Part shown: one piece after another, positions 2,424 to 31,028 of the stretch
How the letters are laid out: every line of letters begins with the position of its first letter
Position numbering within the stretch: the first letter of the stretch is position 1
Virus record (IMG/VR): IMGVR_UViG_2897328257_000002
Source of the DNA: a virus
Taxonomy: Duplodnaviria > Heunggongvirae > Uroviricota > Caudoviricetes
Reading direction: 5' to 3' (one strand)
DNA: 35,771 nt
Made by a program: the position numbers and the translations under genes
The notes under the pieces: generated by a model
What the model was told of the DNA's origin: nothing
Databases searched by the model: none
The model's input: only the letters and a program-made list of their open reading frames with translations

Positions 2424-2933
2424 ATGTTTGATTACCAAGTTTCCAAACATCCACATTTTGATGAAGCCTGTCGTGCATTCGCACTGCGCCACAATCTGGT
2501 GCAACTGGCAGAACGTGCAGGCATGAATGTGCAGATTCTGCGGAACAAACTGAACCCAGCTCAACCTCATTTATTAACCGCACCAGAAATTTGGTTGCTT
2601 ACCGATCTGACTGAAGATTCAACGCTGGTAGATGGTTTTCTGGCACAGATTCACTGCCTGCCATGTGTACCGATTAATGAGGTAGCAAAAGAGAAACTGC
2701 CGCATTACGTCATGAGTGCAACTGCAGAGATAGGACGTGTCGCGGCAGGTGCGGTTTCTGGCGATGTAAAAACCAGTGCAGGCCGTCGTGATGCGATCAG
2801 CAGCATTAACTCTGTTACACGACTGATGGCGCTGGCTGCTGTTTCATTGCAGGCCCGTTTACAGGCTAATCCTGCGATGGCGAGTGCAGTTGATACCATG
2901 ACTGGTCTTGGTGCTTCATTCGGTTTGCTGTGA
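2424..2933 (+). CDS. cII: CII-like early regulatory protein (phage 186 CII family)
   Basis: ATG at 2424 with GGAG 9 nt upstream; 169 aa beginning [24 protein letters not shown], recalled as 186 CII-like. Position immediately after apl. Confidence 0.75.
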
Positions 2934-2940
2934 GGTGCTT

Positions 2941-3237
2941 ATGCTTACGAAAGAACCATCATTTGCATCGCTGCTGGTAAAACAAAGTCCGGCAATGCAC
3001 TACGGTCACGGCTGGATCACGGGTGAGGATGGAAAACGCTGGCATCCATGTCATTCACAAGATGAATTGCTGTCTGAATTGACCACGAGGAAACGGAGAA
3101 AGTCCAAATGTATGCGGCAGAAAGTGAAGTGGTTTATCAGTTTCGTTACAGAGGGGAGAGTTATTCAGTACCTGAAGATGATTTGCTCTGTTGCTATCCG
3201 TCATTGTCGGGCGATGGCAGTTACTTTTTCACGTTAA
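2941..3237 (+). CDS. Hypothetical early protein
   Basis: ATG at 2941 just after the cII stop (GAGGTG upstream); 98 aa. The 3' third overlaps the next ORF in another frame and looks non-protein-like, so the true stop is uncertain. Confidence 0.45.
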   Translation: MLTKEPSFASLLVKQSPAMHYGHGWITGEDGKRWHPCHSQDELLSELTTRKRRKSKCMRQKVKWFISFVTEGRVIQYLKMICSVAIRHCRAMAVTFSR

Positions 3238-3332
3238 AGGATGGGACGTTTTTACGGGGAGAGCAGGTTAAAGAGACGATACGAAAAAATGTATCTCCTC
3301 TTGAGCGTTACCGTAAGAACAAAGAACGATAG
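3108..3332 (+). CDS. Hypothetical early protein
   Basis: ATG at 3108 with GGAG 9 nt upstream; 74 aa (MYAAESEVVYQFRYRGESYSVPEDD...). Overlaps the previous ORF by about 130 nt in a different frame. Confidence 0.5.
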   Translation: MYAAESEVVYQFRYRGESYSVPEDDLLCCYPSLSGDGSYFFTLKDGTFLRGEQVKETIRKNVSPLERYRKNKER

Positions 3333-3354
3333 CTGCGTTTGGGGGATATGAAGT

Positions 3355-3696
3355 ATGGCAATTAATGGCGCTGCAGCAACTGTTCCATTAAGCCCCGGTG
3401 AACGCCTGAATGGACTTAATCACATTGCGGAGTTAAGGGCGAAAGTTTTTGGCCTGAATATTGAGTCAGAGCTTGAGCGGTTTATTAAAGATATGCGTGA
3501 TCCACGGGATATCAATAATGAACAAAATAAACGGGCACTGGCTGCCATATTCTTTATGGCAAAAATTCCAGCTGAACGTCATAGCATCAGCATTAATGAG
3601 CTGACCACTGACGAAAAGCGGGAGCTGATTAAAGCAATGAATCATTTTCGTGCAGTGGTGAGCTTATTTCCCAGACGGCTAACCATGCCGAATTAA
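3355..3696 (+). CDS. Hypothetical early protein (113 aa)
   Basis: ATG at 3355, G-rich RBS upstream; same strand and spacing as the early operon. Confidence 0.6.
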   Translation: MAINGAAATVPLSPGERLNGLNHIAELRAKVFGLNIESELERFIKDMRDPRDINNEQNKRALAAIFFMAKIPAERHSISINELTTDEKRELIKAMNHFRAVVSLFPRRLTMPN

Positions 3697-3763
3697 CCAA
3701 CTAATGAAATTAATGGCGTAAACCCGCCGGGCATCCCTTTATCTAAATTCAGGAGAATTGATT

Positions 3764-3997
3764 ATGCGTAATATTGAAACCCTCACGACTAAAACCGGAC
3801 CGGATGACGCAGGGCTTAATATTTTACTGACAGAGGCTCGTCTGGAAGAACGCCGGGCAAGGGCAGAAGCAATGGCAGCTCGCCTTGATAGCCTGGCGTG
3901 TCATATCACATCCCGCCAGCTAAACCACGTCGAAGCGGCAGAACTACTGCGTGTAACTGCTGAAGCAATCCAGAACGAAGCGCAGGAGATCCACTAA
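3764..3997 (+). CDS. Hypothetical early protein (77 aa)
   Basis: ATG at 3764 with AGGAG (3751..3755) 8 nt upstream; stop overlaps the start of the next gene. Confidence 0.55.
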   Translation: MRNIETLTTKTGPDDAGLNILLTEARLEERRARAEAMAARLDSLACHITSRQLNHVEAAELLRVTAEAIQNEAQEIH

Positions 3998-4224
3998 TGG
4001 CTGATGCAATGGATCTCGTACAGCAGCGCGTTGAAGAAGAACGCCAGCGCCATATTCGTGCTGCCCGTGCCAAAACACCGGGCGTGTCTCGCGTGCTTTG
4101 TATTGAATGTGAAGCGCCAATTCCGCCAGCACGACGCCGCGCCATTCCGGGAGTGCAGCTTTGCATTACCTGCCAGGAAATCGCAGAGCTGAAAGGCAAA
4201 CATTACAACGGAGGTGCTGTATGA
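3997..4224 (+). CDS. TraR/DksA-family C4 zinc-finger protein
   Basis: 75 aa with CIECEAPIP...(17 aa)...CITCQE, a four-cysteine finger at the C-terminus typical of phage TraR/DksA-like proteins. Stop overlaps the Dam start (ATGA). Confidence 0.75.
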   Translation: MADAMDLVQQRVEEERQRHIRAARAKTPGVSRVLCIECEAPIPPARRRAIPGVQLCITCQEIAELKGKHYNGGAV

Positions 4225-5078
4225 GCACCATCCTGAAATGGGCGGGAAATAAAACCGCCATTATGTCCGAACTGAAAAAACACCTTCCTGCTGGCCCGCG
4301 ACTGGTTGAACCTTTCGCGGGTTCCTGTGCTGTGATGATGGAGACGGATTACCCCAGCTATCTGGTTGCGGATATTAATCCTGATTTAATCAACCTCTAT
4401 AAAAAGGTTGCCGCTGATTGTGAATCGTTTATATCTCGCGCCAGAGTTTTATTTGAGATCGCAAACAGGGAGGTGGCTTATTACAACATAAGGCAGGAGT
4501 TTAATTACTCCACTGAAATTACTGATTTCATGAAAGCGGTATATTTCCTGTATCTCAATCGTCACGGTTACCGTGGTTTATGTCGCTATAACAAGAGCGG
4601 GCATTTCAACATTCCCTACGGTAATTATAAAAATCCGTATTTCCCTGAAAAAGAAATTCGCGCATTTGCAGAAAAGGCCCAGCGAGCAACGTTTATCTGC
4701 GCCAGCTTTGATGAAACGCAGGCGATGTTGAAGGCGGGGGATGTGGTGTATTGCGATCCGCCGTATGACGGTACGTTTTCCGGCTATCACACTGACGGCT
4801 TCACTGAAGATGACCAGTATCACCTGGCATCTGTTCTTGAACATCGGTCATCAGAAGGACATCCGGTCATTGTTTCTAACAGTGACACATCCCTGATCCG
4901 TTCGCTGTATCGCAATTTTACTCACCACTACATCAAGGCAAAACGCAGCATCGGTGTGGCAGCTGGCGAGGGTAAATCAGCAACAGAAATCATTGCTGTT
5001 TCCGGGCCGCGCTGCTGGGTGGGATTTGATTATTCGCGTGGCGTGGATAGTTCTGCCGTGTACGGAGTACGTGCATGA
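4221..5078 (+). CDS. DNA adenine (N6) methyltransferase, Dam/D12 class
   Basis: ATG at 4221 behind GGAGG (4211..4215). N-terminus [35 protein letters not shown] (AdoMet-binding FxGxG-like motif) and catalytic DPPY (CDPPYDG). Stop overlaps the gene A start. Confidence 0.85.
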
Positions 5079-7489
5079 GTCATGCCGATATGAACAACTG
5101 CTGCGGCTTTAACGAAGCTGCCGCATCGTTCTCATGGAACAGCCCGAAAAAGGCCATTAACCCTTATCTGGACCCGGTGGAAGTTGCGCCGGTTTCTACG
5201 CTTTCAAACCTGATCACTCTGTACGCTGCCGATAACGAGCAGGAACAGCTGCGCCGTGAGGCGCTGAGTGATCAGGTCTGGGAGCGTTATTTCTTTAATG
5301 AATCCCGTGATCCTGTCCAGCGCGAAATGGAACAGGATAAGCTCATTAGTCGGGCAAAGCTGGCGCATGAGCAGCAGCGTTTTAATCCGGATATGGTCAT
5401 TCTGGCGGACGTCAACGCCCAGCCTTCCCATATCAGCAAGCCGCTGATGCAACGTATTGAATACTTCAGCAGCCTTGGCAGGCCAAAGGCTTATTCCCGC
5501 TATTTACGTGAGACGATTAAGCCATGTCTGGAACGACTGGAGCATGTACGCGACAGTCAGCTATCTGCATCTTTTCGCTTTATGGCAAGCCATGAAGGGC
5601 TGGACGGCCTGCTGATCCTGCCTGAAATGAGTCAGGATCAGGTGAAACGCCTGTCCACCCTGGTAGCTGCGCATATGAGTATGTGCCTTGATGCCGCTTG
5701 TGGCGATTTGTATGCCACCGATGACGTTAAGCCAGAAGAAATCCGCAATACATGGGAAAGGGTGGCAGCGGAAACCCTGCGTCTGGATGTAATCCCGCCT
5801 GCGTTTGAGCAACTCCGTCGGAAAAGAAACCGCCGTAAACCCGTGCCCTATGAACTCATTCCGGGTTCGCTGGCGCGTATGTTGTGCGCCGACTGGTGGT
5901 ACCGGAAATTATGGAAAATGCGTTGCGAATGGCGGGAAGAGCAGTTGCGTGCTGTCTGCCTTGTCAGCAAAAAAGCATCTCCCTATGTCAGCTATGAAGC
6001 CGTGTTGCATAAACGTGAGCAGCGCCGTAAGTCGCTGGAGTTTTTCCGTTCTCATGAACTGGTGAACGAAGACGGCGACACGCTGGACATGGAGGATGTG
6101 GTAAACGCCAGCAGCAGCAACCCTGCGCATCGCCGCAATGAGATGATGGCCTGTGTTAAAGGTCTGGAGCTTATCGCGGAAATGCGCGGTGACTGCGCCG
6201 TTTTCTACACCATCACCTGTCCGTCACGTTTCCATTCCACGCTAAATAACGGCAGGCCCAACCCGACCTGGACAAATGCGACGGTAAGACAAAGCAGCGA
6301 TTATCTGGTCGGTATGTTTGCTGCATTTCGTAAGGCGATGCACAAAGCCGGGTTGCGCTGGTATGGCGTGCGGGTGGCTGAGCCGCATCACGACGGCACA
6401 GTTCACTGGCACCTGTTGTGTTTCATGCGCAAAAAAGACCGCCGCGCCATTACTGCATTGTTGCGTAAGTTTGCTATCCGTGAAGACCGCGAGGAGCTGG
6501 GCAATAACACGGGGCCGCGCTTTAAGTCTGAGCTGATTAACCCGCGCAAAGGAACGCCGACAAGCTACATAGCGAAATACATCAGTAAGAACATTGACGG
6601 GCGTGGTCTGGCTGGCGAGATCAGCAAGGAAACGGGTAAATCTCTGCGTGATAACGCTGAATACGTGAACGCCTGGGCGTCTTTGCATCGTGTTCAGCAA
6701 TTCCGCTTCTTTGGCATTCCGGGGCGTCAGGCTTACCGTGAACTGCGATTGCTGGCTGGTCAGGCGGCAAGGCAACAGGGGGACAAAAAAGCAGGTGCGC
6801 CGGTACTGGATAACCCGCGCCTTGATGCCATCTTGGCTGCTGCTGATGCTGGTTGTTTTGCCACCTACATCATGAAGCAGGGCGGCGTACTGGTTCCCCG
6901 TAAATATCACCTCATCAGAACCGCTTATGAAATCAACGAAGAGCCGACCGCCTATGGCGATCACGGCATTCGTATTTATGGCATCTGGTCACCCATTGCA
7001 GAGGGCAAGATCTGCACTCATGCAGTGAAGTGGAAAATGGTTCGTAAAGCCGTTGACGTTCAGGAGGCGGCAGCCGACCAGGGCGCTTGCGCCCCTTGGA
7101 CTCGTGGCAATAACTGTCCCCTTGCTGAAAATTTGAACCAACAAGGGAAAGACAAATCAGCTGATGGGGATACCAGAACGGACATTACCCACATGGATGA
7201 CAAGGAGTTGCACGATTACCTGCACAGTATGAACAAAAAAGAGCGCCGGGAACTGGCTGCAAGGTTACGCCTGGTGAAACCGAAACGGCGTAGAGACTAC
7301 AAACAGCGAATTACAGACCATCAACGACAGCAGCTCGTCTATGAACTGAAGTCCAGAGGATTTGATGGCAGCGAGAAAGAGGTCGATTTACTCCTTCGCG
7401 GCGGCAGTATTCCGTCAGGAGCAGGCCTGCGTGTCTTCTATCGGAACCAGCGTTTGCAGGAAGATGATAAGTGGCGGAACCTGTATTAA
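5075..7489 (+). CDS. A: Replication initiation endonuclease (P2 gpA / 186 A family, rolling-circle HUH protein)
   Basis: 804 aa; HUH-like motif [10 protein letters not shown] and tyrosine-containing YIAKYISK segment; position and size match gene A of P2-like phages. Confidence 0.9.
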
Positions 7490-8457: not shown

Positions 8458-9069
8458 ATGGATTTAGTCTTTAAAGTTCTGGCTTCGTTGGGTGGGGTGT
8501 CTTTTGTTGCATCTGGCATATTTGTTTGGATCGGGAAAGTTTATTTAGAAAGATATAAGTCGCGGCTAAACAAAGATATTGCTGAATTTCAATCACAACT
8601 GAGTGCAACTAATGAAAGAATAAAGGCTAAGTTAGACAATTCTGTTTATGTAACGAAAGCGTATTTTGATAAGGAGTTATCAGCATATAGTCTCATTTGG
8701 AATTCGATGTTTGAAACCAGAGAAAGCGTGCTTAAGCTGAGGCCTGCGCTGGATCATGTTGACCCCAACGAACCATTTGAAGAGAGAAAATTTAGAAGGT
8801 TGAAAGTTTTTTTTGATGCATTTAACACTTTTGTTACAAGTGTTGAATCTAACAAACCGTTCATCTCACCAGAGGTTTATATAATCTTGGACCGTTTCCG
8901 GAAGGAATGCCTTTCAGAGTCAATATCGTTTAAGCATAGCGATCCAGAATTTGACGGGCAAAATTATTGGAAAGAGGCGGAGTTGAACCGTACAACCATC
9001 ACCAAGCTTTTTGATGAGACGTGTGATGCAATTCGAGACAGGATGCACACATTAACTGTGGTTACGTAG
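8458..9069 (+). CDS. Membrane-anchored hypothetical protein (203 aa; one N-terminal TM helix, then a charged, partly coiled-coil domain)
   Basis: ATG at 8458. N-terminus LVFKVLASLGGVSFVASGIFVWIG is hydrophobic; no recognised motif. AT-rich cargo region; followed by a terminator. Confidence 0.6.
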   Translation: MDLVFKVLASLGGVSFVASGIFVWIGKVYLERYKSRLNKDIAEFQSQLSATNERIKAKLDNSVYVTKAYFDKELSAYSLIWNSMFETRESVLKLRPALDHVDPNEPFEERKFRRLKVFFDAFNTFVTSVESNKPFISPEVYIILDRFRKECLSESISFKHSDPEFDGQNYWKEAELNRTTITKLFDETCDAIRDRMHTLTVVT

Positions 9070-9316: not shown

Positions 9317-10966
9317 ATGTTAGTCAAGAAAAATAAAAATTATAGTTTATATTTTTTAATTACAAATAATCAACAGATATCTGATTCTGGTAATTATATA
9401 AAAATAGTCCCATCAAGAAGCGATTGGAATGATTTTGGATATTTGAGTAGAGTCGAAATATCTATTTTTAATAAAAAAGAGTGTAAGGATATAATTTCAC
9501 TGAATGGTTATATTGGTTTTTTGAATTCAGAGGAGGAACGAAATGGAAAAGCAGAACTGATAAGGCGAGTGAAGAAAAAGGAAGAATCTAATTTAAAGGA
9601 TGAGGGGTTTAATGATTATTTTGTCATGCTTCAGGATATGAATAATTATCGAAGACTAGTAAGATTTTTTGGGGTGAATGAATCCAAATATATATTAAAT
9701 TTCATTAATGATGTTGTTTCTAAGAAAAGTGACGCTAGTGCAGAGAATTTGAGGAAAAAAGCAATCTCTTCTGATATCTTTAATAAATCTTTCATTAGAG
9801 AGTCTGAGTCGTATTTTACTTTCAAAAATGCAGGAACAGTTCTTTCCGGTATTCAATATGAGGAGTTGGGTAATTTATCACAGCACATCAAGATTAGCTA
9901 TTCGAATAAAGTTAATGAAGAAGATGTATCTTATGTTTTTAATTTTGATCACGAGCATGATTTACCAAAAAGAATTTCCATAATTATAGGCGAGAATGGT
10001 GTAGGAAAAAGCCAAACGCTTAGAGAAATCGCATTGGCTGCGATTAAAGGAAAGGATAATTTGGTGGCTGTAGTTGATTCTAACGGTGTAAGCATTGAAG
10101 AACGAATTCAAATTAGTAGGCTCATTGCTTTTTCTCCAACAAATGAAAGTAAGTGTTCATTTCCAACCGATAAAAGAATAAAATCATTGATATGGTACAA
10201 AAGATTGACTTTAAATCGTGAATCAAAATCCAAATTAAACTTGAATGATTTAATAGTGCAACTAGCGAGGAGTAACGACGCTATCGGCTATAATCAAAGG
10301 TGGAATATATTTGTTGATGCACTGAGTGTTCTAAATAGTAACAACGATTTAGTAATCAAATGTAGCGGTGAAAATTCACCATTTGTTAAATTAAATGAGC
10401 TTAATTCTCGAGGCGAAGAATCCAGACTATCATTATATTCTGAAATTATTCTCTCTGGCGAGCCTTTGAGGCTTGTTGAAAATAAATGTTACCCTTTGAG
10501 TAGTGGGGAAATATCGTTTATTAAGTTTTGTGTACAAGTCTGTTTGTATATTGAGAATGGGACTCTTCTATTAATAGATGAGCCAGAAACACATCTCCAT
10601 CCTTCATTTATTAATAAATTTATGGCATTGCTTGATAATTTATTAGAAAAGACAGGCTCTTCAGCTATCATAGCAACGCATTCGGTTTATCTTGTTCGGG
10701 AGGTTTTTAAGGAGCAAGTGACAATACTCAGAAGACGAGATGATGGGGTAATTGTTAGCGAAAAACCGAGATTGAGTACTTTTGGGGCGAATATAGGAAA
10801 TATCTCATATTTTGTTTTCGGTGAGAGTGAACCAACTCAAATTTTAAATAAAGTAAAAAATAATATAATTGCAAAGAATATGTCTTGGGATGATGTTGAA
10901 TCTAAATATAGCGAGGACTTATCACTTAATGTATTAACTGCGTTGAGAAATGAAATAGGCAATTGA
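9317..10966 (+). CDS. ABC-type (AAA_15/AAA_21-like) ATPase with ~220-aa N-terminal extension; PtuA-like candidate defence ATPase
   Basis: 549 aa. Walker A GENGVGKS (~residue 225), signature-like LSSGE, Walker B/D-loop LLLIDEPETHLHP, H-loop IIATHS. N-terminal ~220 aa has no recognisable motif. Very AT-rich; stop is 1 nt before the next start. Confidence 0.75.
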   Translation: MLVKKNKNYSLYFLITNNQQISDSGNYIKIVPSRSDWNDFGYLSRVEISIFNKKECKDIISLNGYIGFLNSEEERNGKAELIRRVKKKEESNLKDEGFNDYFVMLQDMNNYRRLVRFFGVNESKYILNFINDVVSKKSDASAENLRKKAISSDIFNKSFIRESESYFTFKNAGTVLSGIQYEELGNLSQHIKISYSNKVNEEDVSYVFNFDHEHDLPKRISIIIGENGVGKSQTLREIALAAIKGKDNLVAVVDSNGVSIEERIQISRLIAFSPTNESKCSFPTDKRIKSLIWYKRLTLNRESKSKLNLNDLIVQLARSNDAIGYNQRWNIFVDALSVLNSNNDLVIKCSGENSPFVKLNELNSRGEESRLSLYSEIILSGEPLRLVENKCYPLSSGEISFIKFCVQVCLYIENGTLLLIDEPETHLHPSFINKFMALLDNLLEKTGSSAIIATHSVYLVREVFKEQVTILRRRDDGVIVSEKPRLSTFGANIGNISYFVFGESEPTQILNKVKNNIIAKNMSWDDVESKYSEDLSLNVLTALRNEIGN

Positions 10967-10967
10967 A

Positions 10968-11831
10968 ATGAATAAATTAAAAAGACCTGTTTTTAAAGAT
11001 TATTCTGCATTTAAAAAACTATCTGCAAATAAGAGATTAAAACATCATTCTGTTCTGAATGGACAGGATACATTTATACTTAATGCATATAGATCGTACA
11101 TAAAGAATAAAGGATATCTTAATGTCAATTCTTGTGGCGTATTGAGTAACAATATTGCTGAAGCTTTGAAATATTATTATAACAATCCCGCAAAGTGTTT
11201 ATCTATAATTGATGATATAAGAGCAGCTAATTCTAATTCTCTATGTCCAATGTGTGGTTCAATGCATAGCGGGACTTTGGATCATGTTTTACCCAAGGAA
11301 AACTATCCAGAATTTTCTTTATTCACTAAGAATTTGGTTCCTGCTTGCAAATGTAATACTTTCAAAAGTACTACTATAGCTAATTCTGCAGGCCATCGGA
11401 TGCTGCATCCATATTTTGATAATATATTAAAAAAAAGATTAATATGTGCTAATTTTTCTAAATTAGGGCGAACACCTACAATTGATGTAAAAATCATAAT
11501 TGACCCAATGTCACCAGAATATAACAATGTTAAGTATCATCTTGATAATGTTGTTATCAAGAATAATATTAAGGGGTATTTGTCTGAACAATGGGAGTCG
11601 TTTTACTTATATCCTGAGCTTGTTATTAGAGGACTGAATAAGAGTCTTTCTACTTATAGCGATGTATATGAGTTGTTGACTCGCGAGTTGTTGCTGTTGG
11701 ATGAAAAACATAAAGGTAAAAATAATTGGAATTCGGTTTTTGTAGCTGGGTTAATTCGACCTGATGTGATTAGGTGGATACTCTGTGAATTACATTTAGG
11801 TAACAGAAGTCCAGACGGTCGTCTCATATGA
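10968..11831 (+). CDS. HNH endonuclease-domain protein; PtuB-like candidate defence nuclease
   Basis: 287 aa with CPMCGSMHSGTLDHVLPKENYP...NLVPACKCN...H...LHPYF, an HNH core with cysteine zinc-binding pairs. Translationally coupled to the upstream ATPase. Confidence 0.7.
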   Translation: MNKLKRPVFKDYSAFKKLSANKRLKHHSVLNGQDTFILNAYRSYIKNKGYLNVNSCGVLSNNIAEALKYYYNNPAKCLSIIDDIRAANSNSLCPMCGSMHSGTLDHVLPKENYPEFSLFTKNLVPACKCNTFKSTTIANSAGHRMLHPYFDNILKKRLICANFSKLGRTPTIDVKIIIDPMSPEYNNVKYHLDNVVIKNNIKGYLSEQWESFYLYPELVIRGLNKSLSTYSDVYELLTRELLLLDEKHKGKNNWNSVFVAGLIRPDVIRWILCELHLGNRSPDGRLI

Positions 11832-23153: not shown

Positions 23154-23751
23154 TCTGCTGCCACCGGGTTCAACACCACTGGAGCGCCGACTGGCGCAAA
23201 CCTGCAGCGGGATTTCTGATCTGCAGGTGCCGCTTCGTGACTTGTGGAATCCGGCAACCTGTCCGGTCAGTTTCCTGCCTTATCTCGCCTGGGCGTTCTC
23301 TGTAGATCGCTGGGACGAGGGCTGGACAGAAAGCGTCAAGCGCCAGGTGGTGAAGGATGCTTTTTATATTCATCAGCATAAAGGGACCACCAGTGCCGTG
23401 CGGCGGGTGGTGGAGCCGTTCGGCTTTCTGATCCGCATTATTGAGTGGTGGCAGACCGGAGAGGCACCGGGCACGTTTCGCCTGGATATCGGCGTGCAGG
23501 ACCAGGGTATCACTGAAGATACCTATCTGGAACTTGAGCGACTGATAAGCGATGCCAAACCATGTAGCCGCCACATGATCGGCATGTCCATCAATCTGCA
23601 GACCAGCGGCCCGCATTGGGTGGGAGCCGCCAGCTATCTTGGCGAAGAAATCACGATCTATCCGTATATCAACGAAACGATTATTTCCGGTGGCACCGCG
23701 CATGAAGGCGGGGCGGTCCATGTTATTGACACAATGAGAGTGAATCCATGA
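23146..23751 (+). CDS. I: Baseplate/tail protein I (P2 gpI family)
   Basis: 201 aa; overlaps the J stop and the H start. Confidence 0.8.
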   Translation: MNSLLPPGSTPLERRLAQTCSGISDLQVPLRDLWNPATCPVSFLPYLAWAFSVDRWDEGWTESVKRQVVKDAFYIHQHKGTTSAVRRVVEPFGFLIRIIEWWQTGEAPGTFRLDIGVQDQGITEDTYLELERLISDAKPCSRHMIGMSINLQTSGPHWVGAASYLGEEITIYPYINETIISGGTAHEGGAVHVIDTMRVNP

Positions 23752-24804
23752 GCACAAAATTTTATACCCTGCTGACGGATATTGGCGCGGCGAAACTTGC
23801 CAGCGCCGCCGCGCTCGGTGTGCCGCTAAAAATTACCCATATGGCGGTGGGCGATGGCGGCGGAGTATTGCCAACGCCGGACGCAAAGCAGACGGCACTG
23901 GTAAATGAGAAACGCCGGGCTGCGCTGAATATGCTTTATATCGACCCGCAGAACAGCAGCCAGATTATTGCTGAACAGGTGATCCCTGAAAACGAGGGCG
24001 GTTGGTGGATACGTGAAGTGGGCCTGTTTGATGAGTCCGGGGCATTGATTGCCGTGGGCAACTGCCCGGAAAGCTATAAGCCGCAACTGGCTGAAGGCAG
24101 CGGGCGCACCCAGACCGTGCGCATGGTGCTGATTACCAGCAGTACGGACAATATCACCCTGAAAATCGACCCTGCTGTAGTGCTGGCAACCCGCAAGTAT
24201 GTGGATGACAAGGCACTGGAGCTGAAGGTGTACGTGGATGACCTGATGGCAAAACATCTTGCCGCACCGGACCCGCATTCACAGTATGCACCCAAAGAAA
24301 GTCCGACGTTTACCGGAACCCCCAAAGCGCCAACGCCAGCGGCGGGGAATAATACCACGCAGCTTGCGACCACCGCATTTGTTCAGGCGGCACTGACGGC
24401 TCTTATTAATGGTGCGCCAGCCACGCTGGACACGCTGAAAGAAATAGCCGTAGCCATTAACAATGATCCGAAATTCAGTACCACCATTAACAATGCGCTG
24501 GCACTGAAAGCGCCGCTGTCGAGTCCGGCACTCACCGGAACGCCAACAGCTCCCACGGCGGCGCAGTCGGTCAACAATACACAGATTGCCACTACGGCTT
24601 TTGTGAAATCGGCGATTGCAGGAATGGTGGGTTCTGCACCTGCGGCCCTAGATACACTGAACGAACTGGCGGCGGCGCTGGGGAATGATCCGAACTTTGC
24701 CACGACAATGCTTAATGCGCTGGCAGGTAAACAACCGCTGGACAATACGCTGACTAATTTGAGTGGAAAGGATGTAGCTGGTCTTCTCGCATACCTTGGT
24801 TTGG
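23748..24804 (+). CDS. H: Tail fibre protein H, N-terminal (constant) part only; 3' end truncated by the assembly gap
   Basis: N-terminus MSTKFYTLLTDIGAAKLASAA...MAVGDGGG...ESYKPQLAEGSGRTQTVRMVLITS matches the recalled P2 gpH N-terminal region. Reading frame runs into the N-run at 24805. Confidence 0.85.
24312..24755 (+). repeat. Two tandem ~74-aa tail-fibre repeats within H (TGTPxAPT...NNTQxATTAFV...APAxLDTLxExAxAxxNDPxFxTT)
   Basis: Visible in the H translation (residues ~189-262 and ~263-336). Confidence 0.5.
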
Positions 24805-24815
24805 NNNNNNNNNNN
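24805..24815. other. Assembly gap (11 N)
   Basis: Run of N in the sequence; interrupts the tail-fibre region exactly where an invertible segment is expected. Confidence 0.99.
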
Positions 24816-24980
24816 ACGAATAAACTCACCACGTAAATCAGGCAATTTATTTGTCGGATAAGCCTTTGCCAGTTCCGGGTATTCTTCAGCAGAAAAAGCT
24901 GCACCGTTGCATTTCAGCCAGCCTGTCGGCGGAGTGGCTGAAGGCCATGGAACAGGTACACCAACAGGTAATGCCGAACC
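24816..24980 (-). CDS. 5' fragment of an alternative tail-fibre variable (C-terminal) segment in inverted orientation; remainder lost in the gap
   Basis: Minus-strand translation ...SALPVGVPVPWPSATPPTGWLKCNGAAFSAEEYPELAKAYPTNKLPDLRGEFIR carries the PWPS...YP.LA.AYP...PD.RG motif recalled from variable tail-fibre ends of the Mu S / P1 S / P2 H type. Lies just inside the candidate inversion site next to the invertase gene. Confidence 0.5.
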
Positions 24981-25006
24981 TTCTCCCAAACCAACGTTTA
25001 AGAAAA
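24981..25006. promoter_or_regulatory. Candidate Hin/Gin-type inversion crossover site (TTCTCCCAAACCAACGTTTAAGAAAA)
   Basis: 26-bp imperfect palindrome with AAACC-AA-(G)GTTT core resembling recalled hix/gix sites; located between the variable fibre fragment and the invertase gene. Confidence 0.45.
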
Positions 25007-25061
25007 TGCAGCGATTACGGCTAACTGGCATCATCCCCGGTTTTTATTCAGGGGGATGATC

Positions 25062-25628
25062 ATGCTTATTGGCTATGTACGCGTGTCAACAAATGACCAG
25101 AACACCGATTTGCAACGTAATGCACTGAACTGCGCGGGATGTGAGCGGATTTTTGAGGATAAAATCAGTGGCACTAAGTCCGACAGACCAGGGTTGAAAA
25201 AACTGCTCAGGACACTATCGGCAGGAGACACGCTGGTTGTCTGGAAGCTGGACAGGTTGGGGCGCAGTATGCGGCATCTTGTTACGCTGATAGAAGAGTT
25301 GCGTCAGCGAGGCGTGAATTTCCGAAGCCTGACTGACAGTATTGATACCAGCACCCCAATGGGCCGTTTCTTTTTTCATGTCATGGGTGCCCTGGCTGAA
25401 ATGGAACGCGAACTGATAGTTGAACGTACCAGGGCAGGGCTGGCTGCAGCTCGTGCCAAAGGCAGAGTAGGTGGACGCCGTCCTAAGTTGACCACCGAAC
25501 AGTGGGCACAGATTGGGCGTTTACTCGAGGCCGGAGAATCAAGACAGCGTATTGCACTGATTTTTGATGTAGGCGTTTCTACCATTTATAGAAAATTTCC
25601 GGCAAATAAGAGCAATGAATCTCCCTGA
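25062..25628 (+). CDS. Serine-recombinase DNA invertase (Gin/Hin/Pin/Cin family)
   Basis: MLIGYVRVSTNDQNTDLQRNAL... with catalytic serine context VRVSTNDQ and C-terminal HTH (VGVSTIYRKF); essentially collinear with recalled Gin. ATG at 25062 behind GGGGG; an alternative ATG at 25056 is in frame. Confidence 0.9.
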   Translation: MLIGYVRVSTNDQNTDLQRNALNCAGCERIFEDKISGTKSDRPGLKKLLRTLSAGDTLVVWKLDRLGRSMRHLVTLIEELRQRGVNFRSLTDSIDTSTPMGRFFFHVMGALAEMERELIVERTRAGLAAARAKGRVGGRRPKLTTEQWAQIGRLLEAGESRQRIALIFDVGVSTIYRKFPANKSNESP

Positions 25629-27521: not shown

Positions 27522-27824
27522 ATGAGCGATAAGCAGACTGAAAAGACTATTCAACTGGATACCCCTATCAAGCGCGGTAAAACGGAAATCACCGAAATTG
27601 TGCTGCGTAAACCGCAGTCCGGTGCACTGCGCGGTACACGCCTGCAGGCTATTATGGATATGGATGTGAACGCGATGATGACCGTGATCCCCCGCATCTC
27701 CAGCCCGGCACTGACTGCACAGGAAATTGCAGAGATGGACCCGGCAGATCTCACCGCTATGTCGGTTGAGGTTGTCACTTTTTTGTTGAAGAAGTCGGTA
27801 CTTGCCGGTTTACCGACAGCCTGA
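27522..27824 (+). CDS. E: Tail assembly chaperone E (P2 gpE family)
   Basis: 100 aa; contains the slippery heptamer near its 3' end; precedes the tape-measure gene. Confidence 0.8.
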   Translation: MSDKQTEKTIQLDTPIKRGKTEITEIVLRKPQSGALRGTRLQAIMDMDVNAMMTVIPRISSPALTAQEIAEMDPADLTAMSVEVVTFLLKKSVLAGLPTA

Positions 27825-27958
27825 CGGTTGACGATCTGGTGGCTGATATCGCCACCATCTTTCACTGGCCGCCATCCGTTACTGACGTTATGCCGCTGAC
27901 CGAAGTGCTGGAATGGCGGTATAAAGCGATTCAGAGAAGCGGGGCCAACGATGAGTGA
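27522..27958 (+). CDS. E+E' fusion produced by programmed -1 ribosomal frameshift (tail assembly chaperone, long form)
   Basis: Slippery T_TTT_TTG at 27779..27785 in the E frame; the -1 frame is open from there to TGA at 27956..27958, overlapping the T start at 27951. Confidence 0.7.
27779..27785 (+). promoter_or_regulatory. Programmed -1 frameshift slippery heptamer TTTTTTG
   Basis: In-frame position verified from the E translation (codons ACT TTT TTG); matches the slippery sequence recalled for P2 E/E+E'. Confidence 0.7.
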
Positions 27959-30900
27959 TAATAACCTGCGCCTGCAGGTCATTCTTAATGCGGTTGACAA
28001 ACTCACCCGCCCATTCCGTGCTGCACAGGCCAGTTCGAAAGAGCTGGCTGGCGCAATCAGAAACTCCCGTGACGCATTAAAGCAACTCAATCAGGCGGGT
28101 AACAGCTTGGAAAAATTTCGCAAGCTGCAGGCCGATAACAAGAAGTTAGGCGACAGGCTGAACTATGCCAGACAGAAGGCAAATTTGCTTAGTTCTGAGC
28201 TGGAAGCGATGGAACAACCATCACAACGGCACCTTGTGGCTTTAGGTCGGCAAACGCTGGCAGTCCAACGCCTGGAAGAACAACAAAAATATTTGCAGAA
28301 GCAAACGGCGCTTGTGCGTGCAGAACTGTACCGGACGGGAATTTCTGCGAAAGATGATGCGGGAGCAACTGCCCGTTTAGCCCGTGAAACATCACGTTAT
28401 AACTAGGAATTGTCGAAACAGGAGGCGCGGCTGAAGCGACTGGGTGAAGCTCAGCGCAGGATGAATGCGGCGCGTGCCAGTTATGCCCGTTCGCTGGAGG
28501 TGCGCGATCGTATTGCAGGAGCCGGAGCCACTACCACGGCTGCAGGGCTGGCAATGGGGACGCCAGTGATGGCGGCAGTAAAAAGCTATACCAGCATGGA
28601 AGATGCCATGAAAGGTGTGGCAAAACAGGTCAATGGTCTGCGTGACGATAATGGAAACCGTACTGCACGTTTTTATGAAATGCAGGATGCCATCAAGGCT
28701 GCCAGCGAACAGTTGCCGATGGAAAACGGTGCGGTGGACTTCGCTGCACTGGTTGAAGGTGGTGCGCGCATGAACGTCGCAGACCCTGACGACAGCTGGG
28801 AAGACCAGAAACGTGACCTGCTGGCCTTCGCCAGTACGGCAGCAAAGGCGGCAACAGCCTTTGAGCTGCCAGCGGATGAACTGTCAGAAAGTCTGGGGAA
28901 AATCGCCCAGCTCTACAAAATACCTACCCGCAATATTGAACAGCTCGGCGATGCGCTGAACTATCTGGATGATAACGCCATGTCGAAAGGGGCGGACATC
29001 ATTGATGTGATGCAACGTCTGGGCGGTGTGGCTGACCGTCTGGATTATAGTAAAGCGGCGGCACTGGGTTCCACCTTTCTGACACTGGGCGCTGCGCCGG
29101 AGGTTGCAGCCAGTGCAGCAAACGCGATGGTGCGTGAATTGTCCATTGCCACCATGCAAAGCAAGAGTTTCTTTGAAGGGATGAATCTGCTGAAACTCAA
29201 TCCTGAAGTGATTGAAAAGCAGATGACGAAGGATGCGATGGGAACTATCCAGCGTGTGCTGGAGAAGGTGAACGCACTGCCGCAGGACAAGCGTCTGTCT
29301 GCCATGACCATGTTGTTTGGTAAAGAGTTTGGCGATGACGCGGCGAAACTGGCAAACAACCTGCCGGAACTACAGCGCCAGCTAAAACTGACAGCGGGCA
29401 ATGATGCGCTCGGTTCCATGCAGAAAGAATCCGACATCAACAAGGACTCACTTTCTGCTCAGTGGTTGCTGGTTAAAACCGGAGCGCAGAATACCTTCAG
29501 CAGCCTGGGCGAAACGCTGCGCCAGCCGCTGATGGATATTCTGTACACGGTGAAAAGCGTTACGGGAGCGTTGCGTCGCTGGGTGGAAGCTAACCCGGAA
29601 CTGACGGGCACACTGATGAAAGTAGCCGCTATTGTGGCTGCGGTTACCGTAGGCCTCGGCACCTTGGCTGTGGCGCTGGCTGCAGTGCTGGGGCCGCTGG
29701 CAGTCATCCGTCTGGGATTCTCTGTGCTGGGCATCAAAACGTTACCTTCCGTTACGGCAGCAGTAACACGAACTAGCAGCGCGTTGTCCTGGCTGGCTGG
29801 CGCTCCACTGGCAGTGCTGCGACGCGGGCTTGCTTCATCGGGTAACGCAGCGGGTTTACTTACTGCGCCGTTGTCGTCTTTGCGCCGTACGGCATCACTG
29901 ACGGGAAATGTCCTGAAAACTGTAGCAGGTGCGCCGGTTGCACTATTGCGGTCTGGATTATCCGCTTTACATGCTGTTGCTGTGATGTTTATGAATCCTC
30001 TGGCGGTACTGCGCGGTGGACTGGCTGCCGTAGGCGCGGTGCTTCGTGTGCTTGCATCTGGTCCGCTGGCGATGCTGCGCGTTGCCCTGTATGCCATATC
30101 TGGTCTGTTAGGTGCTCTGCTCAGTCCGATAGGTCTTGTGGTTACTGCACTGGCGGGCGTGGCGCTGGTTGTCTGGAAATACTGGCAACCCATCACCGCA
30201 TTTCTCGGTGGCGTGGTGGAAGGATTCAAAGCGGCGGCAGGTCCCATCAGTGCTGCATTCGAACCACTTAAGCCTGTGTTTCAGTGGATTGGCGACAAAG
30301 TACAGGCGCTGTGGGGCTGGTTTACTGATCTGCTGACGCCCGTTAAGTCGACCTCTGCCGAACTGCAGAGTGCAGCGGCAATGGGGCGGCGATTCGGGGA
30401 GGCACTGGCGGAAGGGCTGAATATGGTCATGCATCCGCTGGACTCCCTGAAATCCGGCGTTTCCTGGTTGCTGGAGAAGCTCGGCATTGTCAGTAAAGAG
30501 GCCGCAAAGGCAAAACTGCCGGAAAGCGTGACGCGTCAGCAACCTGCGACGGTGAATGCAGACGGTAAAGTGATGATGCCATCGGGTGGTTTTCCATCAT
30601 GGGGATATGGCTTTGCGGGGATGTATGACAGCGGCGGGTATATCCCGCGCGGGCAGTTTGGCATCGTCGGTGAAAACGGGCCGGAAATTGTTAACGGCCC
30701 GGCAAATGTGACCAGCCGGAGAAATACAGCTGCACTGGCTGCCGTTGTTGCCGGAATGATGGGCGTTGCTGCCGCGCCTGCAGAGCTTCCACCGTTGCAT
30801 CCTTTGGCACTTCCCGCGAAAGGCGGCGAAGCGATGATGAGTCGTGCAGCCACTGTGCCGCCCGTTCACCGGATTGAGGCACCGACGCAGATCATCATTC

Positions 30901-31028
30901 AGACGCAGCCAGGACAAAGTGCGCAGGATATTGCGCGGGAGGTGGCACGCCAGCTTGATGAACGTGAACGCAGGCTGAAGGCAAAAGCCAGGAGTAACTA
31001 CAGCGATCAGGGGGGATACGACGCATGA
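27951..31028 (+). CDS. T: Tail tape-measure protein (P2 gpT family), interrupted by an in-frame TAG at 28404..28406
   Basis: ATG at 27951 overlaps the E' stop. The 151-codon N-terminal coiled-coil ORF and the 872-codon ORF 28410..31028 are in the same frame, separated by TAG-GAA; the downstream ORF has only a TTG as its first in-frame start. Confidence 0.8.

Follow-up and report, generated by a model that had tools for sequence, protein, structure and literature searches.

An amber codon in the tape-measure gene of a 186/P2-like prophage of Escherichia coli strain 646 is most likely a spontaneous mutation at a Dcm site

Introduction

Why is the tape-measure gene of a 186/P2-like prophage interrupted by an in-frame TAG codon when the reading frame continues on both sides of it? 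Long-tailed phages build no tail of proper length without a full-length tape measure, and classical conditional-lethal amber mutants exist for the tail genes of P2 and 186 (P2 gene T and 186 gene G). The DNA in question (35,771 nt, IMG/VR record IMGVR_UViG_2897328257_000002; the whole stretch is hereafter called the window) is a part of CP023200.1 from E. coli strain 646. The prophage is located between rcdA and ybjL, and the host genes ybjL and ybjM follow it within the window. Strain 646 is an isolate from a neonatal calf in India. Its genome was sequenced by Illumina NextSeq; CLC and Edena assemblies were merged with CISA to 179 contigs, which Ragout then ordered (PMC5814501). We asked whether the TAG codon is a mutation, a mistake in the sequence, a recoding signal or simply the border between two genes, and what it would mean for the prophage.

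Results

The frame that opens at ATG 27951 was translated to 31028, and only two stops were found in it, one at codon 152 and the other at the terminal codon 1026. The first is the TAG at 28404-28406, which is in frame with the ATG (the local reading is CGT TAT AAC TAG GAA TTG TCG). The features around it are as follows.

27522..27958, plus strand: tail assembly chaperone genes E/E' (E at 27522-27824; E' as a -1 frame extension ending at TGA 27956-27958)
27951..31028, plus strand: tape-measure gene T (homologue of P2 gpT and 186 gpG), 3078 nt, 1025 codons, interrupted at codon 152
27951..28406, plus strand: N-terminal fragment ORF of 151 codons, RefSeq 'hypothetical protein' WP_433961627.1
28403..28407, plus strand: CTAGG, a mutated Dcm site that is CCAGG in all wild-type relatives, with 28404 at the 5-methylcytosine position
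28404..28406, plus strand: in-frame amber TAG, Gln152 CAG>TAG by C>T at 28404, from the alignment with relatives
28410..31028, plus strand: downstream ORF of 872 codons with a TTG start, RefSeq 'phage tail tape measure protein' WP_433961628.1

Both the ORF list and the translation agree with a first-pass annotation of the window, in which the TAG had been described as splitting a one-frame T into parts of 151 and 872 codons. The same annotation had placed the T start over the E' stop; the overlap is 8 nt, and it is seen again in the relatives, where a GpE family CDS spans 2889..3008 and T spans 3001..6078. E shows a profile match to PF10109, and a slippery T TTT TTG can be read at 27779-27785 within it, the frameshift mechanism of E/E' being taken from the annotation of Wphi and 186. 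The downstream part had also been said to lack an ATG near its 5' end, and indeed the first in-frame ATG downstream of the amber is at 28461 (codon 171), with only TTG 28410 close by. Putative in-frame restart codons after the amber are TTG 28410, CTG 28431 and ATG 28461, among which the CTG sits 5 nt past the AGGAGG at 28420-28425. TAG serves as an ordinary stop elsewhere in the element, as had been recognized for cI and the 8458 gene; S and J also end in TAG, and the 45 ORF ends in the window comprise 25 TGA, 15 TAA and 5 TAG.

It is evident that the interrupted gene is a tape-measure gene over its whole length, the N-terminal 151 residues included. The downstream part matches PF10145 (PhageMin_Tail) in a profile search (E=1.1e-18). 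T lies directly after E/E' and ahead of U and D, with the flanking gpU matching PF06995, and this arrangement is common to E. coli prophages, 4LV2017, 500465-1, 186 and Wphi. The N-terminal 151 residues show ~32% identity with the N-terminus of the T proteins of Wphi and the P2-like (Peduovirus) phages over nearly the whole fragment, and 32% identity with 186 G over residues 4-134. In both 186 and Wphi the match begins at the first codons of T/G, and the gene overlaps the E' frame by 8 nt. The 151-aa ORF was matched in 264 phage records, and a tape-measure gene was beneath the match wherever the annotation was inspected. These results speak against the possibility, raised in the first-pass annotation, that the upstream 151-aa ORF is a separate conserved gene; it is the tape-measure N-terminus. 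When both parts were aligned to intact homologues, as had been proposed there, the protein alignment continued unbroken through the amber position. The window protein is longer than the tape measures of Wphi (815 aa) and 186 (812 aa). With TAG at codon 152, there is no single uninterrupted reading frame for the ruler, and the window carries a mutant allele of a member of the P2 gpT/186 gpG family, not an intact member.

In every relative examined, the same 3078 nt form one uninterrupted gene, so the interruption is not a chance ORF boundary. Three examples are given below.

E. coli E2 prophage: T is one 3078-nt gene, 1025 aa, codon 152 CAG
Klebsiella phage 4LV2017: T is one 3078-nt gene, 1025 aa, codon 152 CAG
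Escherichia phage 500465-1: T is one 3078-nt gene, 1025 aa, codon 152 CAG

All wild-type relatives that were aligned have CAG (Gln152), from which the window differs at this codon by a single C>T. The closest wild-type T found, in E. coli Z1322HEC0003, differs from that of the window at 7 of the 3078 nt with no indels, position 28404 being one of the seven. Among 5,426 complete E. coli genomes, none has an exact match to a 61-mer with the TAG at its centre. The 61-mer does match 755 places in 735 complete E. coli records, none with the TAG allele; 678 of these records have their best match at 95-99% identity, the top ones with exactly one mismatch, and 57 more at 90-95%. The exact pattern of the TAG allele also gave zero matches in IMG/VR viral contigs and JGI metagenome contigs.

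The amber allele was nevertheless found in other isolates. In the 90% protein cluster of the 151-aa fragment there is a second complete 151-aa protein (P0108) with two amino-acid differences, and its contigs (20-265 kb) bear the same TAG at the same codon and have the same ybjL-side location. The carriers beyond strain 646 are GCA_016668515.1, ERR3329394 and SRR12740181. The T genes of ERR3329394 and GCA_016668515.1 are identical, and the two are probably one data set. The distances among the amber T genes and to their nearest wild types are as follows.

Window (strain 646) amber T: nearest wild type Z1322HEC0003, 7 nt
SRR12740181 amber T: 62 nt from window T; nearest wild type CI5, 2 nt
ERR3329394/GCA_016668515.1 amber T: 75 nt from window T; nearest wild type N61, 1 nt, which is the C>T itself

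The T genes of SRR12740181 and ERR3329394 are 71 nt apart. The presence of three ambers on haplotypes that are 62-75 nt apart, each of which is only 1-7 nt from a wild-type twin, indicates that the mutation is real and probably recurrent. Between the window-type and the CI5-type backgrounds, the tract of identity around the amber covers only nt 386-674 of the gene, and a conversion tract of 289 bp or less would be needed if the amber were shared by descent. From these haplotypes, at least two independent origins of the C>T are likely. Around the site, ERR3329394 and SRR12740181 show no difference between -810 and +779, and a third origin and short-tract recombination would leave the same pattern in this pair. 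Short-patch gene conversion between co-resident prophages could alternatively have spread one amber allele. The recurrences came from a search for fragments of equal length; they show that the mutation is real and repeatable, not its rate relative to other truncations.

Other apparent truncations were considered and set aside. Two Logan contigs (L005 and L006) that match the exact 151-aa protein are not amber carriers but merely end at codon 151, and L005 reads C at the site. N-terminal fragments of 170 aa (P0120, ~36 contigs) do not represent a natural split; they are due to a G5>G4 homopolymer deletion that is unrelated to the amber. The apparent clustering of truncations at residues 150-170 was discounted as ascertainment, because the cluster gathers only fragments of similar length. 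The assemblies with the 170-aa fragments often have other broken neighbouring genes, which points to long-read indel error or slippage.

It should then be asked whether strain 646 really has CAG and the T at 28404 is a mistake of the consensus. The genome is a merged and reference-scaffolded draft, an 11-N scaffold gap lies inside the window at 24805-24815 (3.6 kb ahead of the amber), no other genome was found to have the exact 151-aa and 872-aa products, and two more alleles, both missense (terminase P D11Y and lysozyme V149A), are unique to the genome of strain 646. However, the genome was sequenced with Illumina and nanopore was not used, and Illumina consensus substitution errors are rare. 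The CCWGG sites show no systematic change. Compared with three relatives, the late region and the host flank of the window have only 7 private differences, and the ybjL and ybjM proteins are 100% identical to those of other strains; the quality of the bases thus looks normal. Moreover, the identical substitution is present in independent data sets, with the consequence that a mistake would need to coincide with a naturally recurring mutation. An error is therefore improbable. Between the two readings that the first-pass annotation had left side by side, nonsense mutation is favored, and assembly error is unlikely in view of the Illumina data and the recurrence in independent assemblies. A nanopore basecalling artefact at the Dcm motif was also rejected, the genome being an Illumina NextSeq genome with no excess of CCWGG>CTWGG in the window. 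No Dcm-motif bias is known for Illumina; nanopore has one, with mis-called Dcm motifs in its assemblies.

The wild-type context of the amber is AA-CCAGG-AA, which is a Dcm site. Dcm methylates the second C of CCAGG, and the altered base is this second C, the methylated one. At the site the relatives read AACCAGGAA and the window reads AACTAGGAA, that is, a CCWGG motif with C>T at the second C. Among the 291 single substitutions that would give a stop in the reconstructed wild-type T, 74 are G:C>A:T transitions and only 3 are at Dcm 5-methylcytosine positions (codon 152, CAG, and codons 614 and 839, both TGG within CCTGG); the figure of 3/291 is descriptive and carries no formal test, as the Dcm context was noticed after the alignment. 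The window is separated from the Z1322HEC0003 prophage by 702 substitutions, among which changes of the 5-methylcytosine of CCWGG to T number 3 in the window and 3 in the opposite direction. The methylase that the phage encodes is of the Dam type and acts on adenine, not on cytosine.

The condition of the other prophage genes was assessed by tblastn of all annotated Z1322HEC0003 prophage proteins against the window. Counterparts that are full length and free of stops were found for replication protein A, the portal, both terminase subunits, the scaffold, the capsid and the lysis genes, and likewise for baseplate V/W/J/I, the sheath, the tube, E, E', U, D and ogr; the integrase aligns without stops over 338 of 350 residues. 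Many phage proteins in the window are 100% identical to those of the Z1322HEC0003 prophage, and window E and E' show 100% identity with the E and GpE of the relatives. T is the sole match that holds a stop. The tail-fibre region is unlike that of Z1322HEC0003: the window, like CI5, has an invertible segment with a recombinase, and the region is broken by the scaffold gap. Because the other compared genes are full length without stops, the lesion in T appears to be single and recent, the downstream 872 codons and all the other compared phage genes being undamaged as far as the comparison goes. Six of the 7 window-private changes are non-synonymous, but decay was rejected as an explanation for this proportion, as the numbers are too small and the S and D alleles are shared with other genomes.

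Discussion

We consider it highly probable that the TAG is a genuine, spontaneous Gln152 nonsense mutation in T of a 186/P2-like prophage of strain 646 and that it originated at a Dcm hotspot. By analogy with what is known of Dcm and Vsr, the 5-methylcytosine of CCAGG would have been hydrolytically deaminated to thymine, and the resulting T:G mismatch would have escaped Vsr very-short-patch repair and been fixed as CTAGG. At such a hotspot site, the same change could be expected to have arisen more than once in the phage family. Lambda cI amber alleles at CCAGG were reportedly used by Lieb to define very-short-patch repair. The substrate of this repair is T:G mismatches in CTWGG/CCWGG (PMC2715241). 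In lacI, the amber hotspots are G:C>A:T changes at the second C of CCAGG, depend on cytosine methylation and are about tenfold over-represented (Coulondre et al. 1978, reviewed in PMC12606429). The amber in T resembles the lacI hotspots (Coulondre, Miller, Farabaugh, Gilbert 1978) in being CAG>TAG at a 5-methylated C, in the change from CCAGG to CTAGG and in the recurrence at one nucleotide. Unlike those of lacI and lambda cI, it is found in natural isolates and in a prophage structural gene rather than in a laboratory mutant collection, and its Dcm dependence and escape from Vsr are presumed. The kind of mutation has been known since its description in 1978, and no new biology is implied; what the prophages may add is a case from field isolates in which a textbook laboratory hotspot shows itself through repeated, independent inactivation of a prophage gene.

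In a non-suppressing host, translation of T would stop after 151 residues and no full-length tape measure would be made, and the tail tube and sheath would then not be assembled to length. An induced prophage could still excise, replicate, package and lyse, but its output would be non-infectious, tail-less heads. From what is known of tape measures, it is thus likely that the prophage is tail-defective in such a host. The situation is like that of the P2 T and 186 G ambers, in which a nonsense codon is also located in the tape measure of a P2-family phage with the same gene order FI-FII-E/E'-T-U-D, and the sup0 phenotype predicted for the window, a failure of tail assembly, is the same as theirs. 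Unlike them, the window amber is spontaneous and resides in a resident prophage. The lesion would be revertible in one step and of the conditional-lethal type, and a Gln-inserting supE would restore the exact wild-type protein.

This last point also leads to the question of whether the amber is suppressed or bypassed in nature, such that a usable tape measure is still made through a suppressor tRNA, near-cognate read-through of UAG or re-initiation. Re-initiation at TTG 28410, CTG 28431 or ATG 28461 could give an N-terminally shortened ruler and shorter tails. By the logic of the sequence, CAG>TAG is exactly the change that a suppressor of the supE type corrects. A TTG is found 4 nt past the stop and an in-frame CTG 5 nt past AGGAGG, nothing is damaged in the downstream ORF or in the rest of the prophage, and amber alleles are present in several isolates. 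However, a tRNA gene search of the window found none, hence no window-encoded suppressor tRNA. The TTG at 28410 has no usable Shine-Dalgarno spacing, the CTG would start translation poorly, and wild-type genes have the AGGAGG just as well. Moreover, the allele is very rare (0 of the 755 places in complete genomes), and ambers that are only 1-7 nt from their wild-type twins look more like young deleterious mutations than like a functional form that is being maintained. We thus regard suppression or bypass as quite improbable.

A related and very improbable reading is that T has either become a reversible switch of tail production through CCAGG/CTAGG or a re-initiated split gene that gives ~15% shorter tails. 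Vsr stimulates changes from CTAGG to CCAGG. If the switch were true, deamination that depends on Dcm would inactivate the tape measure more often than usual and Vsr would restore it, and among the lysogens of a population there would at all times be a minority with tail-less prophages, which would do no harm to neighbours and could revert. A switch and re-initiation are both compatible with the recurrence, with the intact downstream ORF and with the restart codons, but these observations give neither reading support beyond that of a plain hotspot.

In programmed recoding, the TAG would be decoded as an amino acid or would signal regulated read-through. All that favors it is the bare in-frame TAG with a long ORF of the same gene on either side. 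It is excluded because relatives do not share the stop (the wild-type ones aligned, from E. coli, Klebsiella phage 4LV2017 and phage 500465-1, all have CAG), the window has no tRNA gene and four other genes (cI, orf8458, S and J) end in TAG, with no in-frame stop in the other compared phage genes; the first-pass annotation had likewise argued against it. The Dcm position of the altered base, the return of the mutation on different haplotypes and the intact remainder of the prophage are additions to that annotation.

A spontaneous nonsense mutation in T also bears on how the state of the prophage is described. As in the decay of grounded or cryptic prophages, an integrated prophage carries a point lesion in a morphogenetic gene that is essential. 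Unlike in prophage decay, only one lesion is visible, and the other compared genes are intact and near-identical to those of functional-looking relatives. Should decay have begun here, it has not gone past its very first step, which a single back-mutation or recombination can reverse. Tools for prophage completeness would score the element as complete although one base probably disables the prophage. RefSeq, moreover, lists the two halves of T as two intact genes, which should be one pseudogene or mutant allele.

Database and assembly records of the split T gene

In RefSeq/PGAP, the two halves of the tape-measure gene T are entered as two separate, seemingly intact CDSs, and no single pseudogene is annotated for the split T. 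The first half (27951-28406) is WP_433961627.1, a "hypothetical protein"; the second (28410-31028), for which TTG is the start codon, is WP_433961628.1, a "phage tail tape measure protein".

Two short-read contigs from other samples, L005 (ERR15395266) and L006 (SRR25052563), end at T codon 151 or one nucleotide beyond it, the terminal bases being ...ATAACC in L005 and ...ATAAC in L006. These two contigs were retrieved only because the contig end imitates a truncated T protein. It is possible that in the ERR15395266 and SRR25052563 samples the assembly graph branches at exactly the amber base, owing to a C/T polymorphism there.

An N-terminal T fragment of 170 aa, followed by an ORF of at least 855 aa, was found on about 36 contigs of public assemblies. 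Its source is a G5 to G4 homopolymer deletion (CTGGGGGAAG to CTGGGGAAG), seen in four records of relatives (L018-L021) at the equivalent of window 28443-28447. Because neighbouring genes are also broken on several of the contigs with this fragment, the deletions suggest long-read indel errors rather than biology.

Another C/T polymorphism at a Dcm site in T lies at window 30909-30913 (nucleotide 2960 of T in the related record L007). Codon 987 is within CCAGG (Pro987) in the window versus CTAGG (Leu987) in the Z1322HEC0003 prophage, so that the direction is opposite to that at the amber site, with C in the window and T in the relative.

Window-private substitutions

The late region carries seven substitutions private to the window, of which five are missense and one is nonsense. 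Protein changes private to the window include the following:

14706, D11Y in the terminase P
18849, V149A in the lysozyme

A collection of 15 billion proteins has the exact P and lysozyme sequences of the window on no contig but the window's own. Seven private substitutions are too few to separate relaxed selection, recent tip mutations and rare errors.

Tail-fibre region and cargo module

A scaffold gap of 11 N at 24805-24815 lies within the tail-fibre and invertible-segment region (context 23748-25628) and is adjoined by a recombinase gene:

25056-25628, Hin/Gin-type recombinase

The distance from gene I to the recombinase is about 1.3 kb in the window versus about 3 kb in the related CI5 prophage. 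Probably, about 1.7 kb, comprising the tail-fibre C-terminus and the tail-fibre assembly genes, was lost from the window through assembly collapse. The 362-aa H ORF is only apparent, an artefact of the 11-N gap.

Candidate defence genes are located in one module:

9317-11831, cargo module between the replication/DinI-like genes and the portal gene

The ORF of 203 aa upstream of it (8458-9069) has no family match. The module encodes an AAA ATPase (549 aa) and an HNH endonuclease (287 aa). The pair matches PDC-M01, a candidate defence system in PADLOC, with E = 2e-55 for A and 1e-33 for B; its match to Septu PtuA is weaker.
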